Positions 213-51,297 are shown, numbered from the stretch's first letter. The stretch: DNA of 64,000 nucleotides from Deltaproteobacteria bacterium (GCA_013151835.1 JAADHK010000044.1:11447-75446); one strand, 5' to 3'. Notes: a model not told the origin generated them from the letters alone. Translations and numbers: made by a program.

Positions 213-1562
213 TCATTCATTAGGATCGTCAATCCGGTACTTCTTAACCTTATCAATCAACGTCTTGCGGCTGATGCCCAGAAGATCGGCGGCCCGGGTC
301 TTGTTAAACCCGGTCTGCCGCAGGGCGAGCCCGATAAAGAATTTTTCCATTTCCTTAAGATTGAAATTGGAGAGCGCATCTAATTGTTCCGTGTTGAAGG
401 GTAGGTCCCGGGTGGTGATCATACTGCCCTTGCAAGTGATCACGGCCCGCTCCATGACGTTGACGAGTTCCCGGACGTTTCCGGGCCAGTCATAGAGGCC
501 AAGGGAGATTATGGCCCTTTCGGAAATCCCCTCGAGTGGGCGGTTATAAGCCTTCCGGAACCGGTTGAGGTAGTAATCCGCCAGAAGGGGAATATCCTCT
601 TTACGTTTTCTTAAGGGCGGGATTTCGATGGCATACACGTTTAGCCTGTATAAGAGGTCGGCCCGGAAGCGGCCAGCCTCCACCTCGGCATCCAGGTCAG
701 TATTTGTGGCCGTGATAACCCGGAAGTCGGAATAAATCCGGGCAGTCCCCCCCACCCTTGAAAAATCATGGGTTTCAAGAACCCGCAAGAGCTTTGACTG
801 GAACGCAGGGGGGGCGCTGCTGATTTCATCAAGAAAAAGGGTTGCCTTGTCCGCGATTTCAAAAAGCCCTTTTTTCTGTGTGACAGCCCCGGTAAAAGCC
901 CCTCTCTCGTGACCGAAGAGTTCGCTTTCAAGAACACCGGATGAAAATTCATTGCAGTTTACCGCGAAAAAGGGCCTGTCGCATCTTTGCCCCAGATCGT
1001 GAACGGCCCGTGCCACCAGTTCCTTGCCCGTTCCGGTCTCTCCGTTAATAAGGACGGTAACCGGCAGGTCGGCAACTTCCCGGATGGACTCAAGCACCTT
1101 TTGCATCCCCTCCGAGCCGCCGATCATCGACGTGGGCATGGCCGACAGCGAGACTTCCTTTTGCAGTGATTCGATTTGCGCGAGCCTCCGGCGTTTGCCC
1201 AGGGCTTCACGGACCGTGACCCAGAACAGGTCGATCTTGTCGTTAATCGGTTTTTCAAAATAGTGAAAAGCCCCTTTACGGATCATCTGAATGGCCATTT
1301 CAGATGAACCATAGGCGGTAACCAGGATCACCGGGATATCGGGATACAGGTCCTGTACCCGGTCGAAAAAATCGGTCCCGCTCATCTCCGGCATCTCTAT
1401 ATCCGATATAATCAGGTCAACGGGTTCCTTTTCAAGGCTTTTCAATGCCTGGACGGGCGAGGAAAAAGGCAGGATCTTAAACTCTTCTGTTTCGGGCATT
1501 AAGAGAAATAACTCAATAAATGCTTCGTTGTTATCGATGATTTGTATCTTCGATTTTTTCAT
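213..1562 (-). CDS. sigma54-dependent response regulator (NtrC-family enhancer-binding protein)
   Basis: REC domain (DLIISDIEMPEMSG). AAA+ sigma54-interaction domain (GETGTGKELVARAVH, ESELFGHERGAFTGA). C-terminal Fis-type HTH (RAADLLGISRKTLIDKVKKY). The ORF opens at 1577; the ATG at 1562 (MKKSKIQII) is preferred because AAAGGG lies just upstream. Confidence 0.9.
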   Translation of the reverse strand: MKKSKIQIIDNNEAFIELFLLMPETEEFKILPFSSPVQALKSLEKEPVDLIISDIEMPEMSGTDFFDRVQDLYPDIPVILVTAYGSSEMAIQMIRKGAFHYFEKPINDKIDLFWVTVREALGKRRRLAQIESLQKEVSLSAMPTSMIGGSEGMQKVLESIREVADLPVTVLINGETGTGKELVARAVHDLGQRCDRPFFAVNCNEFSSGVLESELFGHERGAFTGAVTQKKGLFEIADKATLFLDEISSAPPAFQSKLLRVLETHDFSRVGGTARIYSDFRVITATNTDLDAEVEAGRFRADLLYRLNVYAIEIPPLRKRKEDIPLLADYYLNRFRKAYNRPLEGISERAIISLGLYDWPGNVRELVNVMERAVITCKGSMITTRDLPFNTEQLDALSNFNLKEMEKFFIGLALRQTGFNKTRAADLLGISRKTLIDKVKKYRIDDPNE

Positions 1563-1786
1563 ACGCCCTTTTAACATAATCGTTTTGAAATGTCGAATGT
1601 AATGGGAGGCGCCGGATCTTTAAATCCGGGGCGCCCGGGGCGCAAGAATGTGTAATTTCGTACCGCCAAACAGGGCGCAAAATCGCTGTGTTGTAAAAAA
1701 ATGTGACGCCCCGGGGCTTTGTGGGAAACTAATGATTAATTAAATAGAATTACAATTGGTTATAAAGCAGGAAAAAGACTGGTTGT

Positions 1787-1801
1787 TGGCATGGAAGTTG
1801 C
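1787..1801 (+). promoter_or_regulatory. sigma54 (-24/-12) promoter candidate
   Basis: TGGCAT-ggaag-TTGC, with GG and GC spaced as in the TGGCAC-N5-TTGC consensus. It lies about 230 nt upstream of the REC gene at 2032 and is divergent from the sigma54 activator gene. Confidence 0.6.
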
Positions 1802-1832
1802 CATGGATATTAATAACGAATTCATTAACCTG

Positions 1833-1994
1833 GATGGCGTCGTAAAAAGTCCCATCTACTGCGTTGTAGCGGGTCGCGAAATACTCGGAATACTATATGT
1901 ATGCCTCCGCTTTCGCGACACCAACTACGCCTTGTATATGGAACTTTCTACTTAGCCATCTTTAACGGCTTGACGGGCTTTTTACGAGTCCGTC
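1833..1994 (-). mobile_element. MITE-like element, subfamily A, copy A1 (162 bp)
   Basis: Imperfect terminal inverted repeats: GATGGCGTCGTAAAAAGT at the left end and revcomp GACGGACTCGTAAAAAGC at the right end. Flanked by direct AACCTG at 1827-1832 and 1995-2000. Over its central part it is near-identical, in reverse orientation, to 4131..4286. Confidence 0.8.
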
Positions 1995-2031
1995 AACCTG
2001 AAAAATTTATCAGAAAAAAGGAATAAAGCTC

Positions 2032-2715
2032 ATGGATCAAAAAGGAATTGTTCTAGTCGTGGATGACAACAGGAATTACAGTGACATGTGTAAGATATAT
2101 CTTGAACAAGAGGGGTATTCCGTCCGTTTTGCCGAAAACGGAAAGCAGGGTCTCAAGCTGGTGGAGCAAATAAGGCCCGATTTAATTGCACTCGATCTCA
2201 TGATGCCGGTAATGGATGGATACCAAGTGCTTACAAGGCTTAAAGCTGCGCCGGAGTTAATGAATATTCCGGTGATCGTCCTGACGGTAAGCCCGGATAC
2301 CCAAGATGTGGTAAAGGCTTTTAATCTGGGCGCCAGTGATTATTTAAGAAAACCCTTTGATGTGGATGAATTTATCGCAAGGGTGAATATGCTGATAAGG
2401 CTCAAGCATGCACAAGATTCTCCGGCAAAGGCTGTGGTCCGGGAAACTGTGAGCCGGACGGGTTCAAAAGAGCCGTTGTTTGAAAAGGAAGTGGCTGAAA
2501 AAGAATATTGCTTAAATCCGGAAAGCGGTTTTGTTCCGCTATCAGGCGAGAGCTCAAATGATCTTCCAAAAAGACTTCTGGGGATAATCGGATTTATAGA
2601 AAACAGTTTAGCGCGATTTTCCTGTGATTTATCTTCCGAAAGCGATCTGCAATTTGCCTTAAGTGCGGTAAAGCACGCAAAACACCTGATAAGACAGAAC
2701 CTGCCCGCCGGTTGA
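2032..2715 (+). CDS. response-regulator receiver protein with a C-terminal His-less DHp-like helix region
   Basis: CheY-like REC (VVDDN, DLIALDLMMPVMDG, KPF). The C-terminus LLGIIGFIENSL...LSAVKHAKHLIRQ resembles the H-box/DHp of the next gene (LSKGIAHDFNNLL...MRAAKRAKHLLGR), but Gly replaces the phospho-accepting His and there is no ATPase domain. AAGGA RBS upstream. Confidence 0.85.
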   Translation: MDQKGIVLVVDDNRNYSDMCKIYLEQEGYSVRFAENGKQGLKLVEQIRPDLIALDLMMPVMDGYQVLTRLKAAPELMNIPVIVLTVSPDTQDVVKAFNLGASDYLRKPFDVDEFIARVNMLIRLKHAQDSPAKAVVRETVSRTGSKEPLFEKEVAEKEYCLNPESGFVPLSGESSNDLPKRLLGIIGFIENSLARFSCDLSSESDLQFALSAVKHAKHLIRQNLPAG

Positions 2716-2775
2716 TTCATAAAACAAAAAATTGATGGCGGCAATTGCAGTGACACTAAGGGAGGATTCAGGGTA

Positions 2776-4029
2776 ATGGTGAAGGATCAAAGTGCTATGG
2801 AGGAAATCAGGCCCTTGGAAAAAGGGATTGTATTAATTGTTGACGATAACCAGAGCAACAGGGAGATGTGCGGGATAAACCTGGAAAGAGAGGGCTTTTC
2901 ACCCTTTTTCGCACGGGATGGCGGAGAATGTCTGGATGTCGCGAAGAAAATCATGCCGGATGTGATTTTGCTCGATGTGGTAATGCCGGTGATGGATGGG
3001 TTTGAGGTTTTAGAAAAGCTCCGGGAGGATTCTGCGACCAGTGAGATACCGGTTCTTATGCTGACTGTGAAATCCGAGACGAAAAACATTGTAAAAGCCC
3101 TTAAACTGGGAGCAAATGATTATCTTAAAAAACCTTTTGAGATGGATGAGCTCATCGCGAGGATTGAAAAGCTGGTGGGGCTGAAAAATATTATGTCGTC
3201 GCTCGGCGAGGTTTCGGAAAATCTGAGACTGCGGACAGGGCAGCTCGAATCTGAATTAAAAAAGGGACTTGCCGAAACAAGCGCATTAAAAAAATATTTG
3301 ACCCATAGTCAGAAAATGGAGGCCCTGGCAACCCTTTCTAAGGGTATCGCGCATGATTTTAACAACCTCCTTTTTCTTATCATGGGCTATATCGATATGA
3401 CGATGTTTGATTTTTCAGGAGATCCCGTTTCGGCTGACAACCTTGAAAAGGCCATGCGGGCGGCTAAACGCGCAAAACATCTTTTAGGCCGGATTGTTGC
3501 GTTTAACGCGCCGGAAAACCGGGAGCTGATGCCTGTAAAACTACAAACCATTGTTGTTGAAACACTTGAAATTATAACATCGACACTCCCGTCCGAAATA
3601 ACTATAACGACAGATATAAACATGGAATGCGCGTCGGTCATGTGCCTGCCGTCCCATATCTACCAGGTTATCATAACTCTCTGCATGAATGCCTGCCATG
3701 CAATGCAGGAAAAAAGCGGGCACATTGAAGTCGGCCTGAATGAATTGGAAATCAGCTCCGCGAAAGGGATGAAAAAATTAAATCTTCCACCCGGAAAATA
3801 TATAAAATTAACAGTTGCGGACACGGGGGCGGACACGGGAGGCGAAAAAGCGAATGTTCGGCTGGAAAAAGCGTGCGCGTCTTCTCCCGAAGCCACGCAA
3901 GCCCGGGACGGAACGGAGATAGGATTGATGCTTGTGTGTGATATAGTAAAAAAGCTTAACGGCGTGATGACAACAGAGGCGGGTGCGGATAGAACGACTT
4001 ATTGCATATATCTCCCGGTGGTCGGTTAG
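2776..4029 (+). CDS. hybrid sensor: N-terminal receiver + HisKA + HATPase_c histidine kinase
   Basis: REC domain paralogous to the preceding gene. H-box GIAHDFNNLL, N-box CMNACHAM, G1 DTG, and a degenerate G2 (GTEIGL). GGAGGA RBS at 2761. Confidence 0.85.
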   Translation: MVKDQSAMEEIRPLEKGIVLIVDDNQSNREMCGINLEREGFSPFFARDGGECLDVAKKIMPDVILLDVVMPVMDGFEVLEKLREDSATSEIPVLMLTVKSETKNIVKALKLGANDYLKKPFEMDELIARIEKLVGLKNIMSSLGEVSENLRLRTGQLESELKKGLAETSALKKYLTHSQKMEALATLSKGIAHDFNNLLFLIMGYIDMTMFDFSGDPVSADNLEKAMRAAKRAKHLLGRIVAFNAPENRELMPVKLQTIVVETLEIITSTLPSEITITTDINMECASVMCLPSHIYQVIITLCMNACHAMQEKSGHIEVGLNELEISSAKGMKKLNLPPGKYIKLTVADTGADTGGEKANVRLEKACASSPEATQARDGTEIGLMLVCDIVKKLNGVMTTEAGADRTTYCIYLPVVG

Positions 4030-4063
4030 GCGGTGAGTCGAATCGCAGATGTGGCCGAACAAT

Positions 4064-4347
4064 GGCTAAGTGAAAAGTTCCATATACAAGGCGTAGTTTT
4101 TTCAGGCACGATGGCATACATATAGTATTTGATGATCTCGTAAAAAGTCAGGCAACCCGGTAAAGATGGCTAAGTAGAAAGTTCCATATACAAGGCGTAG
4201 TGGTGTCGCGAAAGCGATACATATAGTATTCCGAGCATTTCGCGACCCGCTACAACGCAGTAGATGGGACTTTTTACGACGCCATCAGTATTTCGAGTGC
4301 CGGAAAAAAACTACAACGCAGTAGATGGGAGTTTTAACGACGCCATC
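4064..4347 (+). mobile_element. MITE-like element, subfamily A (inner-stem variant 2), interrupted by insertion of another copy
   Basis: The left half (4064..4130, GGCTAAGTGAAAAGTTCCATATACAAGGCGTAG...CATACATATAGTATTT) and the right half (4287..4347, AGTATTTCGAGTGCCGGAAAAAAACTACAACGCAGTAGATGGGAGTTTTAACGACGCCATC) together are collinear with the uninterrupted copy at 29180..29350. Confidence 0.8.
4131..4286 (+). mobile_element. MITE-like element, subfamily A, copy A2 (156 bp), nested inside another copy
   Basis: TIRs are GATGATCTCGTAAAAAGTC and revcomp GATGGCGTCGTAAAAAGTC. A perfect 7-bp direct duplication AGTATTT lies at 4124-4130 and 4287-4293. Confidence 0.85.
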
Positions 4348-6439
4348 AGCTTATCTTGATGACATTATCCTCCCTGGCCGGACGCTGAATAAAGCCTTTC
4401 CCTTTTTTTGCCGCAGCCATGGTCCGGTTCCTGCCTTTGTCCTTGGCCTCGTAAAGGGCTATGTCGGCAGCCCGCACAAGACGTTCCGGCGGCAAATTTG
4501 CTTCCGGGATCATGGAGGCGACCCCGATGCTCAGTGTTACATATTTTGATGCCCGGGATTTTTCGTGGATGATTTTCAGGCTTTCGACCCCGGCTCTGAC
4601 ATTTTCAGCCACCAGCATGGCGCCGTCGACATCGGTGTTGGGCATGATGATAACGAATTCCTCGCCGCCATACCGTGCGACCAGGTCCACTGAACGCTTG
4701 ATGGCCGTTTTAATGGCAGAGGCAACTGATCTGAGGCACTCGTCACCGGCCTGGTGACCATAAGTATCATTGTAAAGCTTGAAGCTGTCCACGTCAGACA
4801 TGATAATGCCAAGGGGGAGTCCTTCACGTTTGTGCCGATCCCATTCCTGGCGAAGGTACTCATCAAAGCGCCGTCTGTTTGCAACCTGGGTCAGCTCGTC
4901 GGAAACAGCCATGGCCTGTAATTTTTCATGGGCCTTTGCCAGCGCCGCCTCGGCCTCTTTTCTGGACGTGATGTCAAAAAACGAGACAATGGTGCTCTCC
5001 TGCCCGGGCGGCTTGTACGCCTTCATGACCACATGTTTGTTCATCCGGTGTCTGCCGATAAAAATAAGTTCGTATTCGCTGGGTGGCGGAAGTCCCCGGG
5101 ACGCCTGGATTGCATGATATCTGCGGATCCGCGCGAGATTCTGCCGTTCAATAAATTCGGTCAGGCGAATTCTGTCTTTTATTTCAAGCCGGGAATAGCC
5201 CGTCATCTCGCAGAACTGGCTGTTGGCCATGGTGATTCTCATATTTTTTTCCACGAGGATGGTTGCCGTACCGGTGTTTTCAAACAGACTCCTGTATCGA
5301 AGCTCGCTTTCCTTGAGTTTACGCGCAACCTGCTGCAGCCTTATATTGTATTGCTGCAAAGCGGCTTTTGCCTGTTTTCTCGATGTGATGTCAACCAGCG
5401 TGGCAATGATCCGTTCATGCCACTGGGCCACGCTCAGCCTGATAATGACGTGTTTGATTTTCTGGGACTTATCGATGAGCTGGCATTCATATTCGGTGGG
5501 AGCGGTGTCGCCCATGGCCCGGCGGCGTATGTGAAACCTCTTGATCCTTTCAAGATCGTCTTTGTGAATAAAATCAGTGAGCCTTTTTTTGTTGCACAAT
5601 TCCCCCTTGGCATACCCGGTCAGTTGCTCGAATTTCGAATTGACAATGGAGATCATCATGTTTTCTTCAAGCAGAATTGTCGGCGTTCCCGAATGTTCGA
5701 ACATGTTTTTATAACGGGATTCACTTTCCTGCAGGGCGTCCCCTATCTTTTGAAGGCTTTTATTTGACTCTTCGAATTCAGTTGCCTTTTCGCCCGCCCA
5801 TAATTGGAGGTGGTCGATGTGACGGATAAGAATGCAGGTATAGATAAGGAGAAATATCGATAATGCGAGAAAGAGAAGAGCCGTGGGAGAAAATTGGGTT
5901 TCAGCTAACCGTATCAGGTATATGGCAAGCACGACAGGTGCGATGATATTTAAAAGGGAACGGATGCATTTGTAACCGTAATTGGCGCCATTGCCTACGG
6001 CGGTGATCAGGATGAAAAGCATCATGGGAGCAGGTTCCCATGGATCGCACAGCCATGCCACGCTGCATGCGGCCACATCGAGCAGGGCCGCCAGGGGTAT
6101 GTTCCTGAAGAAAAATTCGCGCCTTTTTAAAAGAAAATGGAAGAGAAAAAATGTGACAAGGAGCGCCCCGGCCAGCCCTACAATGGCGAACAGGTTTAAA
6201 AACAGAGGCTCTTTTGTGTTGAAAAGAAAATAGCCTGTTGCAAGAAGTGTAAATATTGTGCGGAATAAAAGCTGCAGTCCCGGTTTAATGACTCGCGGCG
6301 GTCCTCCCTCTTCCTCCGGCCATGCAATGGAAGGCTTTTCCTCGGCAAAGGAGAGCATGCTCAGGTCAACTACCGCTTCACTTTCCCGGTGTGCGGACCC
6401 ACCTTTTATCACGGATTGTTGTGCAAGTGTTTTGCCCAT
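4346..6439 (-). CDS. membrane-anchored PAS-PAS-GGDEF diguanylate cyclase
   Basis: Hydrophobic N-terminal third, two PAS-like repeats (SESRYKNMFEHSGTPT and SELRYRSLFENTGTAT), and GGDEF active site RYGGEEFVIIM. The TGA stop (4346-4348) overlaps the last bases of the repeat element. Confidence 0.9.
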   Translation of the reverse strand: MGKTLAQQSVIKGGSAHRESEAVVDLSMLSFAEEKPSIAWPEEEGGPPRVIKPGLQLLFRTIFTLLATGYFLFNTKEPLFLNLFAIVGLAGALLVTFFLFHFLLKRREFFFRNIPLAALLDVAACSVAWLCDPWEPAPMMLFILITAVGNGANYGYKCIRSLLNIIAPVVLAIYLIRLAETQFSPTALLFLALSIFLLIYTCILIRHIDHLQLWAGEKATEFEESNKSLQKIGDALQESESRYKNMFEHSGTPTILLEENMMISIVNSKFEQLTGYAKGELCNKKRLTDFIHKDDLERIKRFHIRRRAMGDTAPTEYECQLIDKSQKIKHVIIRLSVAQWHERIIATLVDITSRKQAKAALQQYNIRLQQVARKLKESELRYRSLFENTGTATILVEKNMRITMANSQFCEMTGYSRLEIKDRIRLTEFIERQNLARIRRYHAIQASRGLPPPSEYELIFIGRHRMNKHVVMKAYKPPGQESTIVSFFDITSRKEAEAALAKAHEKLQAMAVSDELTQVANRRRFDEYLRQEWDRHKREGLPLGIIMSDVDSFKLYNDTYGHQAGDECLRSVASAIKTAIKRSVDLVARYGGEEFVIIMPNTDVDGAMLVAENVRAGVESLKIIHEKSRASKYVTLSIGVASMIPEANLPPERLVRAADIALYEAKDKGRNRTMAAAKKGKGFIQRPAREDNVIKIS

Positions 6440-11412: not shown

Positions 11413-11549
11413 GACGGACTCGTTAAAAGTCCATCTGCGGCGTTGCGCGAGCCGGGAAAGATCTCAACGTACAAAAAGTACGCCTTCGCTCTTTCCCGAC
11501 TCGTGCGCCTTGCATATGGAGCTTTTTACGAGCCCTCAGGCCCGAGTTT
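11413..11549 (-). mobile_element. MITE-like element, subfamily B, copy B1
   Basis: GACGGACTCGTTAAAAGTCCATCTGCGGCGTTGCGC...GCATATGGAGCTTTTTACGAGCCC. Its reverse complement is near-identical to 14037..14170. It has the same arm architecture as subfamily A and starts 5 nt after the ABC ATPase stop. The exact right boundary is uncertain and no clear TSD is seen. Confidence 0.7.
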
Positions 11550-11560
11550 TCTATTCATTA

Positions 11561-11590
11561 TTCGAAGTTGGACGTTCGATGTTCGACGTT
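11561..11590. repeat. short heptamer tract (GTTSGAY)n module
   Basis: TTCGAA GTTGGAC GTTCGAT GTTCGAC GTT. A two-heptamer version, TTCGAC GTTGGAT GTTCGAC GTT, recurs at 46572..46594. Confidence 0.5.
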
Positions 11591-12957
11591 TATTCTTTTC
11601 CCATTTTTTTCCCTGTGGCCGGAGCAATGGCTTTTATTTTTGCATTAATCCGGTTGAGTTGCGTTTTCACCCGGTCAAAATCCTCGGAAGAAAGCGCATA
11701 GGCCCTGGCATTGTCGATGTATTTTTTTGCGTTTTTCAGATCCGAAAGGTTGGTTGATCGGGCAAGTGCCCCGGCCTTTTTAATGTAATGCCAATAGATT
11801 ATGGCATATACTTCTGATTTGGTATATACATCCTTGATCTTTTCCGGGGCCTTGGCCAGGAGAAGAAATGCGATATCTTCCTTGCCCTTTGGCGTAAAAT
11901 CCCCCTTTGATATTTCTAATCCGGTCCTGGTGGGGACTATGTAATAATGGCGAATGTTTAGAAGACTTGCTATTACAATGAGTGATATGATTACAGCGGT
12001 GAAAGTGATTAATGCTTTTATGGGGCCGGGAATTGAACAAAGTCCGGAGGCTATGCATCCTCGTTGTGCCACTGGCTGCGGGATATTTGTTCCCATGACT
12101 TCCGCTTCCGGAACAGCCATGGTTTTCATCGCCTGTTCAGGTGCGGATTCAGGTTCCGGTTCCGGCTCGGTCCTTGTGTCCGGCGCAGTTTCGGGTTCTG
12201 TCGCAGGTTCCTTAATCGCTTCCGGTACAGACTCGGCCTCAGCCTGTGGCTCCGCCACTTCAGTCGCCGCCGTCTCCGGCTCGGGGAGGATATCTGCTTT
12301 TGTCTCTTCAACAACGGGAAATGGTTCAACCGGCGATTTAAAGTCGATCGTCTTTACCAGTAACGCCTTAAGCCCTTCGGCACGGTCTGGGTCGGCCTCT
12401 TCAATGGCAGGGGGCGCGGTGAAAAAGGCATTTTCATCCGGCCCGGTTCCGGGCGAGTCGGGCAGTTCGGGTGTCTCCGAATCAAATTTTTGCATCAATA
12501 GTGTCTTAATCGAAACCGCAGGCTTCTTTTTTGCGGCAGGCACAGTTTCTTTTTTTGCCTTTGCTTTCGCAGCAGGGGCCTTGGGAGATACTTTCTTCTT
12601 TACGACCGGCTTTTTGGGGGAGGGCGCTTTTTCAGCTTTTTTTTCTTCTACCGCTTCAAGGGTGGCGGGTTTAAGAAGAAGTCTTTTTAACCGTGCCGAA
12701 TCTTTTTTCTTTTTGGCAAAAACCGGAGGCGATGAAAAAACCTTTTCATGCTCAGTGTCCGGTTGCGGGACAAAAAGAGTTTTTGGAGCCCAGGCCTCAA
12801 ATTCGCGTTTCAGGATTTTTTTTATTGTTGGTTTACCCCCGCTTTTCTTTTTTAGAGTGGATTTTTTCGCGGCAGCCGCTATTTTTTTCCCGGCAGTCTT
12901 TTTTTTAGCCGCCCCTTTCTTTTTCGTACCTGTTTTTGCACTGCTTTTTTTTGCCAT
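11590..12957 (-). CDS. hypothetical bitopic membrane protein with a Lys/Ala-rich histone-H1-like N-terminus
   Basis: The N-terminal ~160 aa are KKK/AKK-rich, followed by an acidic Pro/Glu-rich linker (PEPETAATEVAEPQAEAE), one TM helix (IKALITFTAVIISLIVIASLLNI) and a ~135-aa helical C-terminal domain. I recognise no catalytic motif. Confidence 0.65.
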   Translation of the reverse strand: MAKKSSAKTGTKKKGAAKKKTAGKKIAAAAKKSTLKKKSGGKPTIKKILKREFEAWAPKTLFVPQPDTEHEKVFSSPPVFAKKKKDSARLKRLLLKPATLEAVEEKKAEKAPSPKKPVVKKKVSPKAPAAKAKAKKETVPAAKKKPAVSIKTLLMQKFDSETPELPDSPGTGPDENAFFTAPPAIEEADPDRAEGLKALLVKTIDFKSPVEPFPVVEETKADILPEPETAATEVAEPQAEAESVPEAIKEPATEPETAPDTRTEPEPEPESAPEQAMKTMAVPEAEVMGTNIPQPVAQRGCIASGLCSIPGPIKALITFTAVIISLIVIASLLNIRHYYIVPTRTGLEISKGDFTPKGKEDIAFLLLAKAPEKIKDVYTKSEVYAIIYWHYIKKAGALARSTNLSDLKNAKKYIDNARAYALSSEDFDRVKTQLNRINAKIKAIAPATGKKMGKE

Positions 12958-13118
12958 AACAATCCCTTTGTCCTTATTATAAAAATTATAAAAAGTTTGG
13001 CTTTTTACTCCATATCCTCTATTATAGTCCCTGACTGCGATATTCTATACATCAATGGCTCTTTTGTTGTAAATCTTTTTTTATCCGGGCGTTTTTGTAC
13101 ATGCCTTTTGGAGGACCG

Positions 13119-13991
13119 ATGGAAACCATATCAAAGAAAAATTCAGCTTCCCCTCCGCCCGGTGCCGCTACGGGCGGGAAAATGGTAAACCTGTTAAACT
13201 ATCTTAGCAGCCTTGACGGCCTTGCCGTTGCATTTTCCGGAGGCGTGGACAGCACGTTTTTGCTTGCCGCCGCAAAACAGGCTCTTTTGGATCGTGTTCT
13301 TGCAATAACCGTTTCATCGTCCCTGATCCCGGCAATTGAGATAAGGTGTGCAAAAGACGCGGCCGCAGATCTTGGCGTAAAGCATGTATGCATTGATCTC
13401 GGGGAAATCACCGATCCGGAGCTTCTGGCAAACCCATCGGATCGTTGTTATATCTGTAAAAATAACGTCTTTTCCGAGATTATCGGCGCAGCCCGTAAAC
13501 ACGGCATTTCAAATGTCGCGGACGGCACCAACACCGATGATCTAAAGGATTTCCGGCCCGGCATGAAGGCGATTGCCGAACTTAAGGTCATATCCCCGCT
13601 TGCCGAAACCGGCTGGAACAAGGCCGAAATCAGGGAACAATCCAGAATCATGGGTCTTGATACATGGAATAAACCGTCTTCTCCCTGCCTTGCAACCCGC
13701 ATCCCCTATGGTATGCCCATAACTACAGCCTCACTGTCTATGATAGAACAAGCGGAGGTCGTACTTGCCCAAAACGGCTTTGCCCAATGCAGGGTCCGCT
13801 ATTTCGGGCACACTGCCAAAATCGAGGTCCCGGAAAATGAAATTTCGCGCCTGGTGTCTTCCGAAATACGGGCACATATTATAGTCGAACTGAGAAAAAT
13901 CGGCTTTCTCTATGTAACTCTCGACCTGGAAGGGTACGGTTCCGGCCGATTAAACCGGGCCATTGCGGAAACCGGTTCGTTGGAAGTGTGA
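13119..13991 (+). CDS. larE: LarE-like PP-loop ATP-dependent sulfur transferase (TIGR00268-type)
   Basis: PP-loop AFSGGVDSTFLL and the LarE active-site context KPSSPCLATRIPYG. C-terminal FLYVTLDLEGYGSGRLN resembles LarE YVTLDLGGFRSGRMN. GGAGGA lies upstream of the ATG at 13119; the ORF opens at a TTG at 13095. Confidence 0.8.
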   Translation: METISKKNSASPPPGAATGGKMVNLLNYLSSLDGLAVAFSGGVDSTFLLAAAKQALLDRVLAITVSSSLIPAIEIRCAKDAAADLGVKHVCIDLGEITDPELLANPSDRCYICKNNVFSEIIGAARKHGISNVADGTNTDDLKDFRPGMKAIAELKVISPLAETGWNKAEIREQSRIMGLDTWNKPSSPCLATRIPYGMPITTASLSMIEQAEVVLAQNGFAQCRVRYFGHTAKIEVPENEISRLVSSEIRAHIIVELRKIGFLYVTLDLEGYGSGRLNRAIAETGSLEV

Positions 13992-14036
13992 TATTTTGTC
14001 GTTTTTCCGGCAAAGAGGTTATTTTTGTCCTAATTC

Positions 14037-14170
14037 AAACTCGGGCCAAGGGCTCGTAAAAAGCTCCATATGCAAGGCGTGCGAGCCGGGAAAGTGCGAG
14101 GCGTACTTTTTGTACGTTGAGCTCTTTCACGGCTTGCGCAACGCCGCAGATGGGCTTTTTACGAGTCCGT
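14037..14170 (+). mobile_element. MITE-like element, subfamily B, copy B2
   Basis: AAACTCGGGCCAAGGGCTCGTAAAAAGCTCCATATGCAAGGCG...CGCCGCAGATGGGCTTTTTACGAGTCCGT. It is inverted relative to B1 and ends 4 nt before the AAGGAG RBS of the glycyl-radical enzyme gene. Confidence 0.7.
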
Positions 14171-29112: not shown

Positions 29113-29179
29113 TTCCTGCCGGTGAATTCAAATTGCAAGTGCGCCACGCGCCTCTTGTAATGAATGTCCCCCATATTTT

Positions 29180-29350
29180 AATGCTCTCGTAAAAAGTCTC
29201 TCAACATGGAAAAGATGGCACAAGTTAAAAGTTTCATATACAAGGCGTAGTGGTTTTTCAGGAACAAAGGCATACATATAGTATTCCGAGTGACTGAAAA
29301 AACACTACAACGCAGTAGATGGGACAGATGGGACTTTTTACGACGCCATC
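29180..29350 (+). mobile_element. MITE-like element, subfamily A, copy A3 (171 bp, uninterrupted)
   Basis: TIRs are AATGCTCTCGTAAAAAGTC and revcomp GATGGCGTCGTAAAAAGTC. A 7-bp direct duplication ATATTTT lies at 29173-29179 and 29351-29357. There is a small internal duplication, GATGGGACAGATGGGAC. Confidence 0.85.
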
Positions 29351-29770
29351 ATATTTTATTATAGCTGCAGTTTTTTGCAAAAGGTTTCCACCGGCAGGAC
29401 CCGTACCCCGTTTTTCATATAATCTTCTGGATATTCGACACATAAATAAAATCGTGGCATATATTTTGAACTGAAAAGCAGATTCCTGTTCTGTATGAAA
29501 AATTCTTGGCGCCGCTCATTTCTATCATTGACAAAGGATGTTGGCTTTTACCGGGTGATCATCAGCAGATCCAAAATGAGCTTTCGGATGTTGTCAACCA
29601 ACTGCCGGCCCCGCCGGTCGTTCTGGCCCCCCCCATTTGATTCATTGTTGTGATCCATGAGGATTTATGTTAGCTGTTGCAATTATATCTTACAGGGTCA
29701 CCGGCTTACTGATGAGCAACGGCCGGAAACAGTTAACCGGTTCATTTTAAAGCAGGCAAAGGAAGAACTT

Positions 29771-43615: not shown

Positions 43616-43652
43616 AAAAAAAACTCCCACCAAGGGGTTGTCATGGCAGGAG
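43616..43652 (-). terminator. intrinsic terminator / attenuator hairpin in the region upstream of the Ehr-like operon
   Basis: On the minus strand: CUCCUGCCA, an 11-nt loop, UGGUGGGAG (9 bp including two G-U pairs), followed by eight U residues. It lies about 195 nt upstream of the operon start codon. Confidence 0.55.
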
Positions 43653-43815
43653 TCATTAGCAGTTATATGCAGTTATAGGTGAACTCCATCACCTTACATT
43701 TTATGTATTAAGCGAATTTATTTATCAAATTTTTAAATTTTGTCAAGCTTTTTTGGCTTTTGCAATAACCTAACCGGCAACGCTGAAGCTTTTTGGAAAA
43801 ATTTACTAAAAATTC

Positions 43816-46502: not shown

Positions 46503-46653
46503 GTAGGGGCGGCCCCCTGTGGCCGTCCTTTTTGCCGCACAAACGGTACAGGCAGAATGTCATATTCAAAATTCGACGTTGGATGTTCGACGTTCATGGT
46601 AAATTCGGGCAGGCACGGGGGCAAAAAGGGCAGGCACGGGGGCCTGCCCCTAC
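46503..46653. repeat. REP/REPIN-like inverted doublet C1
   Basis: The left unit is GTAG-GGGCGGCC-CCCTGT-GGCCGTCC (46503-46528). The right unit is GGGCAGGC-ACGGGG-GCCTGCCC-CTAC (46628-46653), preceded by a partial duplicate at 46607-46621. The interior carries the heptamer module at 46572-46594. Confidence 0.75.
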
Positions 46654-51204: not shown

Positions 51205-51297
51205 GTAGGGGCGGCCCCCCGTGGCCGCCTGATTTCCGAGGGTGTATCAGCCTTATGAAAAATTTCAGAGAGGGCAGGCACAGGGGCCTGCCCCTAC
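51205..51297. repeat. REP/REPIN-like inverted doublet C2 (intercistronic, trpG-trpD)
   Basis: GTAG-GGGCGGCC-CCCCGT-GGCCGCC (51205-51229) and GGGCAGGC-ACAGGG-GCCTGCCC-CTAC (51272-51297). Confidence 0.8.

Follow-up and report, generated by a model that had tools for sequence, protein, structure and literature searches.

A mobile element nested in the loop of an older member of its family in a Desulfobacterales genome, and its probable IS1182-like partner

The DNA analysed here, referred to as the window, is a 64-kb stretch on contig C32 of a Desulfobacterales MAG, a 3.33-Mb draft in 147 contigs with no contig under 3 kb. Near its beginning, directly 3′ of the stop codon of an ORF at 2776-4029, starts (A)ATGGCTAAGTGAAAAGTTCC, the TIR-like beginning of a repeat element whose two halves lie on either side of a second element of the same family. 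The features of this locus, in window coordinates, are the following.

4062..4130, plus strand: left half of the older family-A copy, a hairpin core form without the outer left terminal inverted repeat (TIR); repeat families D2 and D11; aligned after removal of the insert in silico
4124..4130, no strand: left target-site duplication AGTATTT, the original loop sequence of the outer element
4131..4286, plus strand: inner MITE, 156 bp, a long form of family A, inside the older copy
4131..4149, plus strand: left TIR of the inner MITE, GATGATCTCGTAAAAAGTC, matching the TIR consensus GATGNNNTCGTAAAAAGTC of the partner insertion sequence (IS) described below
4268..4286, plus strand: right TIR of the inner MITE (reverse complement GATGGCGTCGTAAAAAGTC)
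4287..4293, no strand: right target-site duplication AGTATTT
4294..4347, plus strand: right half of the older copy, closed by that copy's TIR GAGTTTTAACGACGCCATC; repeat family D4

Read directly from the window sequence, the inner element starts with GATGATCTCGTAAAAAGTC and ends with GACTTTTTACGACGCCATC, and its 19-bp TIRs are identical at 15/19 positions. AGTATTT stands immediately before it and again immediately after it. When the insert and one AGTATTT are deleted, 4062-4130 and 4294-4347 rejoin into an older element of 123 bp, which aligns from end to end with the uninterrupted copy at 29215-29350. The two are identical at 113/123 bases, and the alignment has no sizeable gap except where the uninterrupted copy carries a 9-bp internal duplication. 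The rejoined site is also spanned by the family HMM (E 7e-28). An earlier note on this DNA had described just such a nested element, with TIRs, AGTATTT on both sides and outer halves that rejoin collinear with an uninterrupted copy, and the sequence bears out each of these points. It had also placed the insertion in the central loop of the older copy; the insertion point is indeed the AT-rich apical loop CATACATATAGTATTYCGAG, common to the outer copy and to the one at 29215-29350. Its picture of the outer element holds as far as the rejoining halves go, but this copy is not complete on the left: it has no outer left TIR, and its sequence starts at 4061/4062 with the internal TIR-like repeat (A)ATGGCTAAG. 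What the locus records is the jump of a 156-base non-coding mobile element into the loop of an older member of the family.

Could the nesting have arisen in another way, as an artefact of assembly or by recombination or tandem duplication between repeat copies? The draft is a short-read MAG and many of its contigs break inside these repeats, so the family does trouble the assembler. However, the nested junctions do not lie at shared sequence. Complete element ends meet the loop and are bracketed by a 7-bp duplication of that loop, an arrangement that neither a collapse nor a homologous crossover can produce. The same geometry is seen at three other loci with other duplications, and again in long contigs of other genomes. 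We consider an artefact or a rearrangement of this kind extremely improbable, and keep to the insertion of one copy into another.

The nested pair is not the only trace of the family in the window, where four further elements were found.

1833..1994, minus strand: full family-A copy with a 6-bp duplication, CAGGTT in the minus-strand reading, at 1995-2000 and 1827-1832
11413..11549, plus strand: family-B element, with ends of the same type and another interior; no flanking duplication seen
14037..14170, minus strand: second family-B element, inverted relative to the one at 11413..11549
29180..29350, plus strand: uninterrupted family-A copy, with a 7-bp duplication, ATATTTT, at 29173-29179 and 29351-29357

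The copy at 29180..29350 is our reference for the 'empty site', and such uninterrupted copies of the host element are paralogous 'empty sites'. The inverted family-B pair (11413..14170) brackets two genes; the two elements have no common flanking duplication, and so nothing indicates that they have moved as a composite transposon. Two other features of the window are a fluoride riboswitch at 43640-43702 on the minus strand (Rfam RF01734, 55.2 bits, E 1.4e-12) and a GC-rich hairpin repeat of the GTAG type, ending in CTAC, at 46622-46653 and 51266-51297. The latter (repeat family D6) looks like a separate REP-type family, unrelated to the MITEs. As the earlier note had stated, the window holds no transposase gene: searches of contig C32 with the transposase profile, with rve and with DDE_Tnp_1 gave no match.

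How abundant is the family in the genome? An iterated nhmmer search of the draft gave 272 non-overlapping matches, on most contigs of the MAG, of which 105 are full length, and the inner element of the nested locus, which has 96.3% identity to the family consensus, scores among the best of the full-length matches. Elements scoring at least 50 bits number 250 and make up 1.03% of the genome, a density of about one per 13 kb, and many contig ends fall inside copies. Full copies are 156-171 bp long and non-coding, and one long hairpin dominates them. The consensus TIRs are 19 bp long, GAtGntCTCGTAAAAAGTC on the left and GATGGCGTCGTAAAAAGTC on the right. On the left, family-A elements carry the outer TIR followed by a second, degenerate internal TIR-like repeat, which is the point where the outer copy of the nested locus begins.

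A single AGTATTT pair could be dismissed as chance or as part of the element itself. Among the 101 full copies with usable flanks, an exact flanking repeat of 6 bp was found at 63, of 7 bp at 16 (the AGTATTT locus being one of these) and of 8 bp at one; five more have a flanking repeat with one mismatch, and 16 have no recognisable repeat. Exact repeats of 6-8 bp are thus present at 80/101 copies, against about 0.8 matches when the left flank of each copy is paired with the right flank of a different one, which excludes chance genome-wide. The duplicated words vary from copy to copy (AAGTTT, AATAAGT, AGTCTT, TTTATT, CAGGTT and others), and hence they are target duplications that lie outside the element consensus. 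The earlier note had named two findings that would speak against it, namely that copies generally lack duplications or that AGTATTT belongs to the element; the survey found the opposite in both cases. The note's coupling of TIRs with a target duplication of fixed length needs adjusting, in that TIRs and duplications are real but the length is 6-7 bp, usually 6, and not fixed. Might a 7-bp repeat simply be a 6-bp duplication next to an element with an extra T? This was rejected: no copy shows a 6-bp repeat in the register shifted by one base, so the 7-bp duplications are real.

Shorter related elements behave differently in this respect. TIR pairs of the 120-129-bp class, which are the 126-bp cores of family B, carry an exact duplication in 1/49 cases genome-wide. 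Some long family-B forms of 193-206 bp, with an extra outer TIR, do carry a flanking duplication, and the cores may be long forms that have decayed or may have spread by another route. There are also palindromes of 34-64 bp that contain little beyond two facing TIRs and have no duplication (C108:6944-6977, C4:26637-26696 and C50:34811-34874).

The family-B cores, together with the folding of the elements, bring to mind a different mode of movement, by a hairpin-recognising, single-strand HUH (Y1) transposase, as for REP/REPIN-like or IS200/IS605-type elements. From position 35 to 156 the element folds as a single long, imperfect hairpin (-60.9 kcal/mol), some end variants exist as small hairpins such as GACGGACT-CGTAAAA-AGTCCGTC, and the D6 family in the same window is REP-like. 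HUH transposition, however, is not known to duplicate its target, and the finding that 80/101 copies have exact duplications of 6-8 bp, in unrelated sequence, contradicts it. The same ends moreover bound an IS with a DDE transposase in related genomes (see below), and the searches made here, which used other transposase profiles than that of Y1, turned up no Y1 gene linked to the elements. HUH movement is therefore an explanation to which we give next to no weight, and movement by a transposase that makes staggered cuts is the one followed here.

The duplications also tell where the elements prefer to land. In the 63 six-bp cases the two bases preceding the duplication are T (37) and C (36), the duplication itself reads A (58), A (42), N, N, T (43), T (58), and it is followed by R (53) and A (34). 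The preferred target is a 10-bp palindrome, TCAANNTTGA, as expected of a symmetric transposase complex with a 6-bp stagger. On a larger scale, the elements avoid genes: 12% of element bases fall within a crude ORF-based gene set, compared with 87.5% for random 160-bp windows. Copies lie between convergent genes in 26% of cases, against 15% of all intergenic gaps, and no orientation bias relative to the neighbouring genes was seen among the elements of the genome.

This placement, and the folding, raise the question of whether the hairpin core does something beyond carrying the element. In addition to being part of a MITE, it might act as a folded RNA or DNA signal needed by the host or by the element, such as a terminator or a protein-binding hairpin. 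Two types of central stem are found, GGTGTCGCGAAAGCG/CATTTCGCGACC and GGTTTTTCAG/CTGAAAAAAC; both pair and both surround the loop CATACATATAGTATTCCGAG (examples in the family-A copies of the window are 4098-4109 with 4299-4310, and 4202-4216 with 4235-4248). This pairing would suit such a signal, as would the enrichment between convergent genes. On the other side, Rfam gave no relevant match at the gathering threshold for the elements in the window (in 3950-4450 only chance-level miRNA/lncRNA matches with E above 2), and there is no orientation bias to support such a role. Complementarity of the arms can also be kept by templated repair between them, or reflect descent from different founders. 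A second role of the hairpin is, for these reasons, unlikely but worth keeping beside the MITE reading, to which it would add.

Is the nesting at 4131..4286 a single event of its kind? Each duplication-bearing copy was removed in silico and the rejoined site searched for family sequence, and four further cases came to light besides the window locus.

C108:3061-3223: copy nested inside another A-like copy, duplication AAGAAAT
C1:10992-11146: copy nested in the loop of a family-B copy, duplication AAAAAG
C80: copy abutting, directly beside the end of a family-B copy
C137: copy abutting, directly beside the end of a family-B copy

The abutting arrangement shows a regular spacing. Genome-wide, a spacer of exactly 6 bp separates 14 pairs of facing element ends, and one of 7 bp a further pair (examples of such spacings are C137:13160-13167, C41:36724-36731 and C101:24787-24794). 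Other spacings from 0 to 40 bp are absent, except in a single pair, 40 bp apart, with another element end in between. Elements seem to insert exactly beside existing ends. Why should they do so? The element ends are GA...TC, which gives ..TC/AANNTT/(GA) at the right junction and (TC)/AANNTT/GA.. at the left, so that with every insertion most of the preferred target is restored at both junctions. This rebuilding would explain the 14 pairs at exactly 6 bp.

Which transposase recognises these ends? The earlier note had suggested a search for an IS with ends GATGNNNTCGTAAAAAGTC, and such an IS, of about 1.9 kb and with an IS1182-like DDE transposase, was found in related genomes by a DDE_Tnp_1 search of MITE-rich relatives. 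The first case (G017:C1) is 1906 bp long, with TIRs GATGGCACTGTAAAAAGTC and GATGGACTCGTAAAAAGTC (the second in reverse complement) and an open frame of 611 codons that encodes a 580-aa protein from its first ATG. Pfam places DUF772 (E 2e-06), DDE_Tnp_1 (E 1.2e-06) and DDE_Tnp_1_6 (E 7.5e-16) on this protein. The best NCBIfam model is that of IS1182 (NF033551), which aligns over its positions 30-487 of 488 and scores 151.8 bits against a cut-off of 270. The ISNCY_1 model (NF033593) reaches 79.1 bits against a cut-off of 325, and on a C-terminal stretch only. Annotated plasmid-borne relatives with about 25% identity are named IS1182 family transposase. On these best matches the partner is called IS1182-like here, and is not filed as a member of the family because its score does not reach the curated cut-off. 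Catalysis would be of the DDE type, and D152, D359 and E484 (numbering of the G017 copy) are candidates for the DDE residues by analogy with IS5/IS1182 motifs.

Of 58 genomes from the same taxonomic family, 12 contain relatives of the partner IS. Among named MAGs there are 59 such loci, in Desulfobacterales, Desulfobacteraceae, Desulfatitalea (seven full copies), Nitrospirota, Geobacteraceae and Desulfobulbaceae. In a large protein collection more than 4,700 relatives of the transposase were found at E 1e-20 or better; most come from contigs 1.8-2.3 kb long and bear no more specific name than 'transposase' or 'hypothetical protein'. The IS copies measure 1.87-1.92 kb and their end consensus is GATGNNNTCGTAAAAAGTC. 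Candidate TIR pairs around them show 27 six-bp and 6 seven-bp duplications at AANNTT-type sites, a tally in which some IS copies count more than once where abutting MITE ends share the duplication, and these sites are often bordered by TC and GA. The ends, the duplication length and the target of the IS all agree with those of the MITEs. In Desulfatitalea the two kinds of element even stand side by side, with 133-bp MITEs in tandem against an IS end and the same six bases between units, as in the abutting pairs of the present MAG. One such locus (L111, in the MAG sequence CAXXCO010000002.1, positions 1091-3269) has two 133-bp MITEs and a full IS head-to-tail, with AAACTT before each unit and again after the IS.

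The likeness between MITE and IS is limited to their termini, 18-27 bp (24-27 bp between the left end and some IS ends), and the interiors are unrelated. A MITE that arose by internal deletion of one of the sampled ISs would share more than these 18-27 bp, and this origin was rejected. Two other candidates for the partner, transposases matching ISNCY_2 (NF033594) and rve (PF00665), were also set aside, as they showed no link to the presence of MITEs and no matching TIR pair at their loci. Isolated and highly conserved 38-bp ends in relatives, at one time candidates for IS ends, proved to belong to other MITE variants.

What is left of the partner in the organism itself? Both tblastn and profile searches of the MAG found no intact transposase of the partner family. 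A search for TIR pairs with a common duplication and a distance of 260 bp to 12 kb between them gave only two AT-rich coincidences, so that the assembly contains no intact IS and no composite transposon. A profile built from five full transposases, run against the six-frame translation of the MAG, gave one match. The minus strand of C78 encodes LRAAAVWIVINPEP...KELL, which matches transposase residues 520-571 and lies just inside a TIR, GATGGCGTTGTAAAAAGTC (C78:77-95), with three DNA matches to IS ends that are collinear. C78:77-~300 runs from the TIR into the 3′ end of the transposase gene and then into unrelated DNA. It is the fossil right end of the partner IS, which the lineage therefore once hosted. 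That an intact IS is missing from the MAG says little, because no contig is shorter than 3 kb and the relatives mostly assemble as contigs of 1.8-2.3 kb; an intact copy may still be in the organism, as a multi-copy IS of 1.9 kb would assemble below the 3-kb floor. Given that the MAG has no intact transposase of the family, we infer, rather than observe, that mobilisation in trans took place in this organism and that the partner transposase moved these particular copies.

The assembly does contain other transposases. An IS21-like element at C83:91-3836 has a 53-bp TIR, an 887-aa first ORF and an IstB-like second ORF, and a relative of it, 78% identical, is present on C97. An IS4-like element at C120:1-2090 has a 632-aa DDE_Tnp_1 protein between inverted TTAACCCAAGTTCGACAA ends; a family-B MITE lies about 400 bp downstream of it. 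Could one of these residents move the MITEs? They are the only transposase-like genes seen in the assembly, and IS21-family elements make duplications of 4-8 bp and have several subterminal repeats. But the 53-bp TIR of the C83 element is of a different sequence and the C120 ends are TTAACCCAAGTTCGACAA, both unrelated to the MITE ends, and neither C83 nor C97 has a TIR-like site. We therefore rate the residents as very unlikely movers of the family; an IS of about 1.9 kb, like that of the related bacteria, is probably what moves the MITE.

Taken together, we are confident that the locus is a non-coding MITE whose 19-bp ends should be recognised by the DDE transposase, of about 580 aa, of an IS1182-like IS of about 1.9 kb. 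In the mechanism proposed here, the transposase would be supplied in trans and bind both ends of the element. It would cut the target with a stagger of 6 bp, less often 7 bp, at AT-rich palindromic sites of the form TC/AANNTT/GA; the element would then be joined in, and repair of the gaps would duplicate the 6-7 bp. At the locus in the window the target would have been the AGTATTT of the AT-rich loop at the apex of an older copy shaped like a hairpin, and the product would be the nested pair. The GA...TC ends would rebuild most of the 10-bp target at both junctions, letting new copies land beside old ones.

When did the family spread? About half of the copies (49/101) are at least 95% identical to the consensus. 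The median identity to the nearest neighbour is 96.3% and no two copies are identical, which argues that the burst is not very recent. At 72-80% identity the family is also found in 12/29 genera searched, and the terminal ~37 bp are 95-100% conserved in other genera although the interiors differ. The family is therefore old, and its amplification in this lineage dates back some time. 'Is, or was, mobile', the phrase used in the earlier note, turns out to be apt wording for a family of this age.

The principle at work, a MITE with TIRs, a target duplication and a partner IS, is textbook. The elements, which occupy about 1% of the genome and a far larger fraction of the DNA between genes, are found in promoters, leaders and gene ends, and at many contig ends they interrupt the assembly, so that recognising them aids the annotation and assembly of Desulfobacterales MAGs. 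The link to the MITEs also gives a very abundant, so far generically annotated clade of transposases defined ends, a duplication length and a target motif. We hold it possible, though on balance doubtful, that this clade is undescribed and that the IS/MITE system renews its own target TCAANNTTGA, with two new preferred sites per insertion. If true, a self-renewing target would yield nested copies and arrays spaced by exactly one duplication length, and would account for the nested and abutting repeats in these genomes.

How does the system compare with those already known? One candidate for a registered name of the partner IS is the ISDol1 group of ISNCY. This ISfinder group, discovered in Desulfococcus oleovorans, comprises elements of 1.6-1.9 kb that make 6-7-bp duplications, and the partner would agree with it in size, in the length of the duplication and in the clade of its hosts. 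A Desulfosudis oleivorans MAG contains a partial relative of the transposase (L149). This group may be the name under which the partner is filed. Against this stands the model comparison, in which NF033593, taken here as the ISDol1-group model, gives only the C-terminal 79 bits (cut-off 325), and ISNCY_2 is unrelated. Searches of the literature on ISDol1, on MITEs in Desulfobacter* and on IS1182 MITEs found no description of this MITE family.

The likeness to the IS1182 family (NF033551) consists of a transposase of DUF772 and DDE_Tnp_1_6 type and a full-length model alignment, as against a score below the curated cut-off and about 25% identity to annotated members. The partner IS, at about 1.9 kb, is also similar in size to IS1272, a studied member of the family with 1,934 bp (PMC5678879). 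Its target is a palindrome, as for some IS1182-family members, which target palindromic sequences according to Siguier et al. as cited in PMC5678879. In contrast to the partner IS, with its regular duplications of 6-7 bp, IS1272 leaves its target unduplicated and takes the place of stem-loops (PMC5678879).

As for the MITEs themselves, it is well supported that they combine most of what defines the class: short non-coding elements with TIRs and target duplications, in many dispersed copies, and with an autonomous IS that has the same ends and duplication in relatives. Correia elements, RUP and ERIC are other bacterial MITEs. The family resembles those bacterial MITEs that are moved in trans by an IS, being small, non-coding, bounded by TIRs, numerous and intergenic, with target duplications and with ends in common with the IS; MITEAba12 is a bacterial MITE mobilised in trans by its cognate IS (PMC6382973). 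What sets the present family apart from known bacterial MITEs is that its ends, its 6-7-bp duplication and its TCAANNTTGA target belong to an IS1182-like transposase lineage, together with its high density, its internal TIR-like left repeat and the frequency with which its copies abut at one duplication length.
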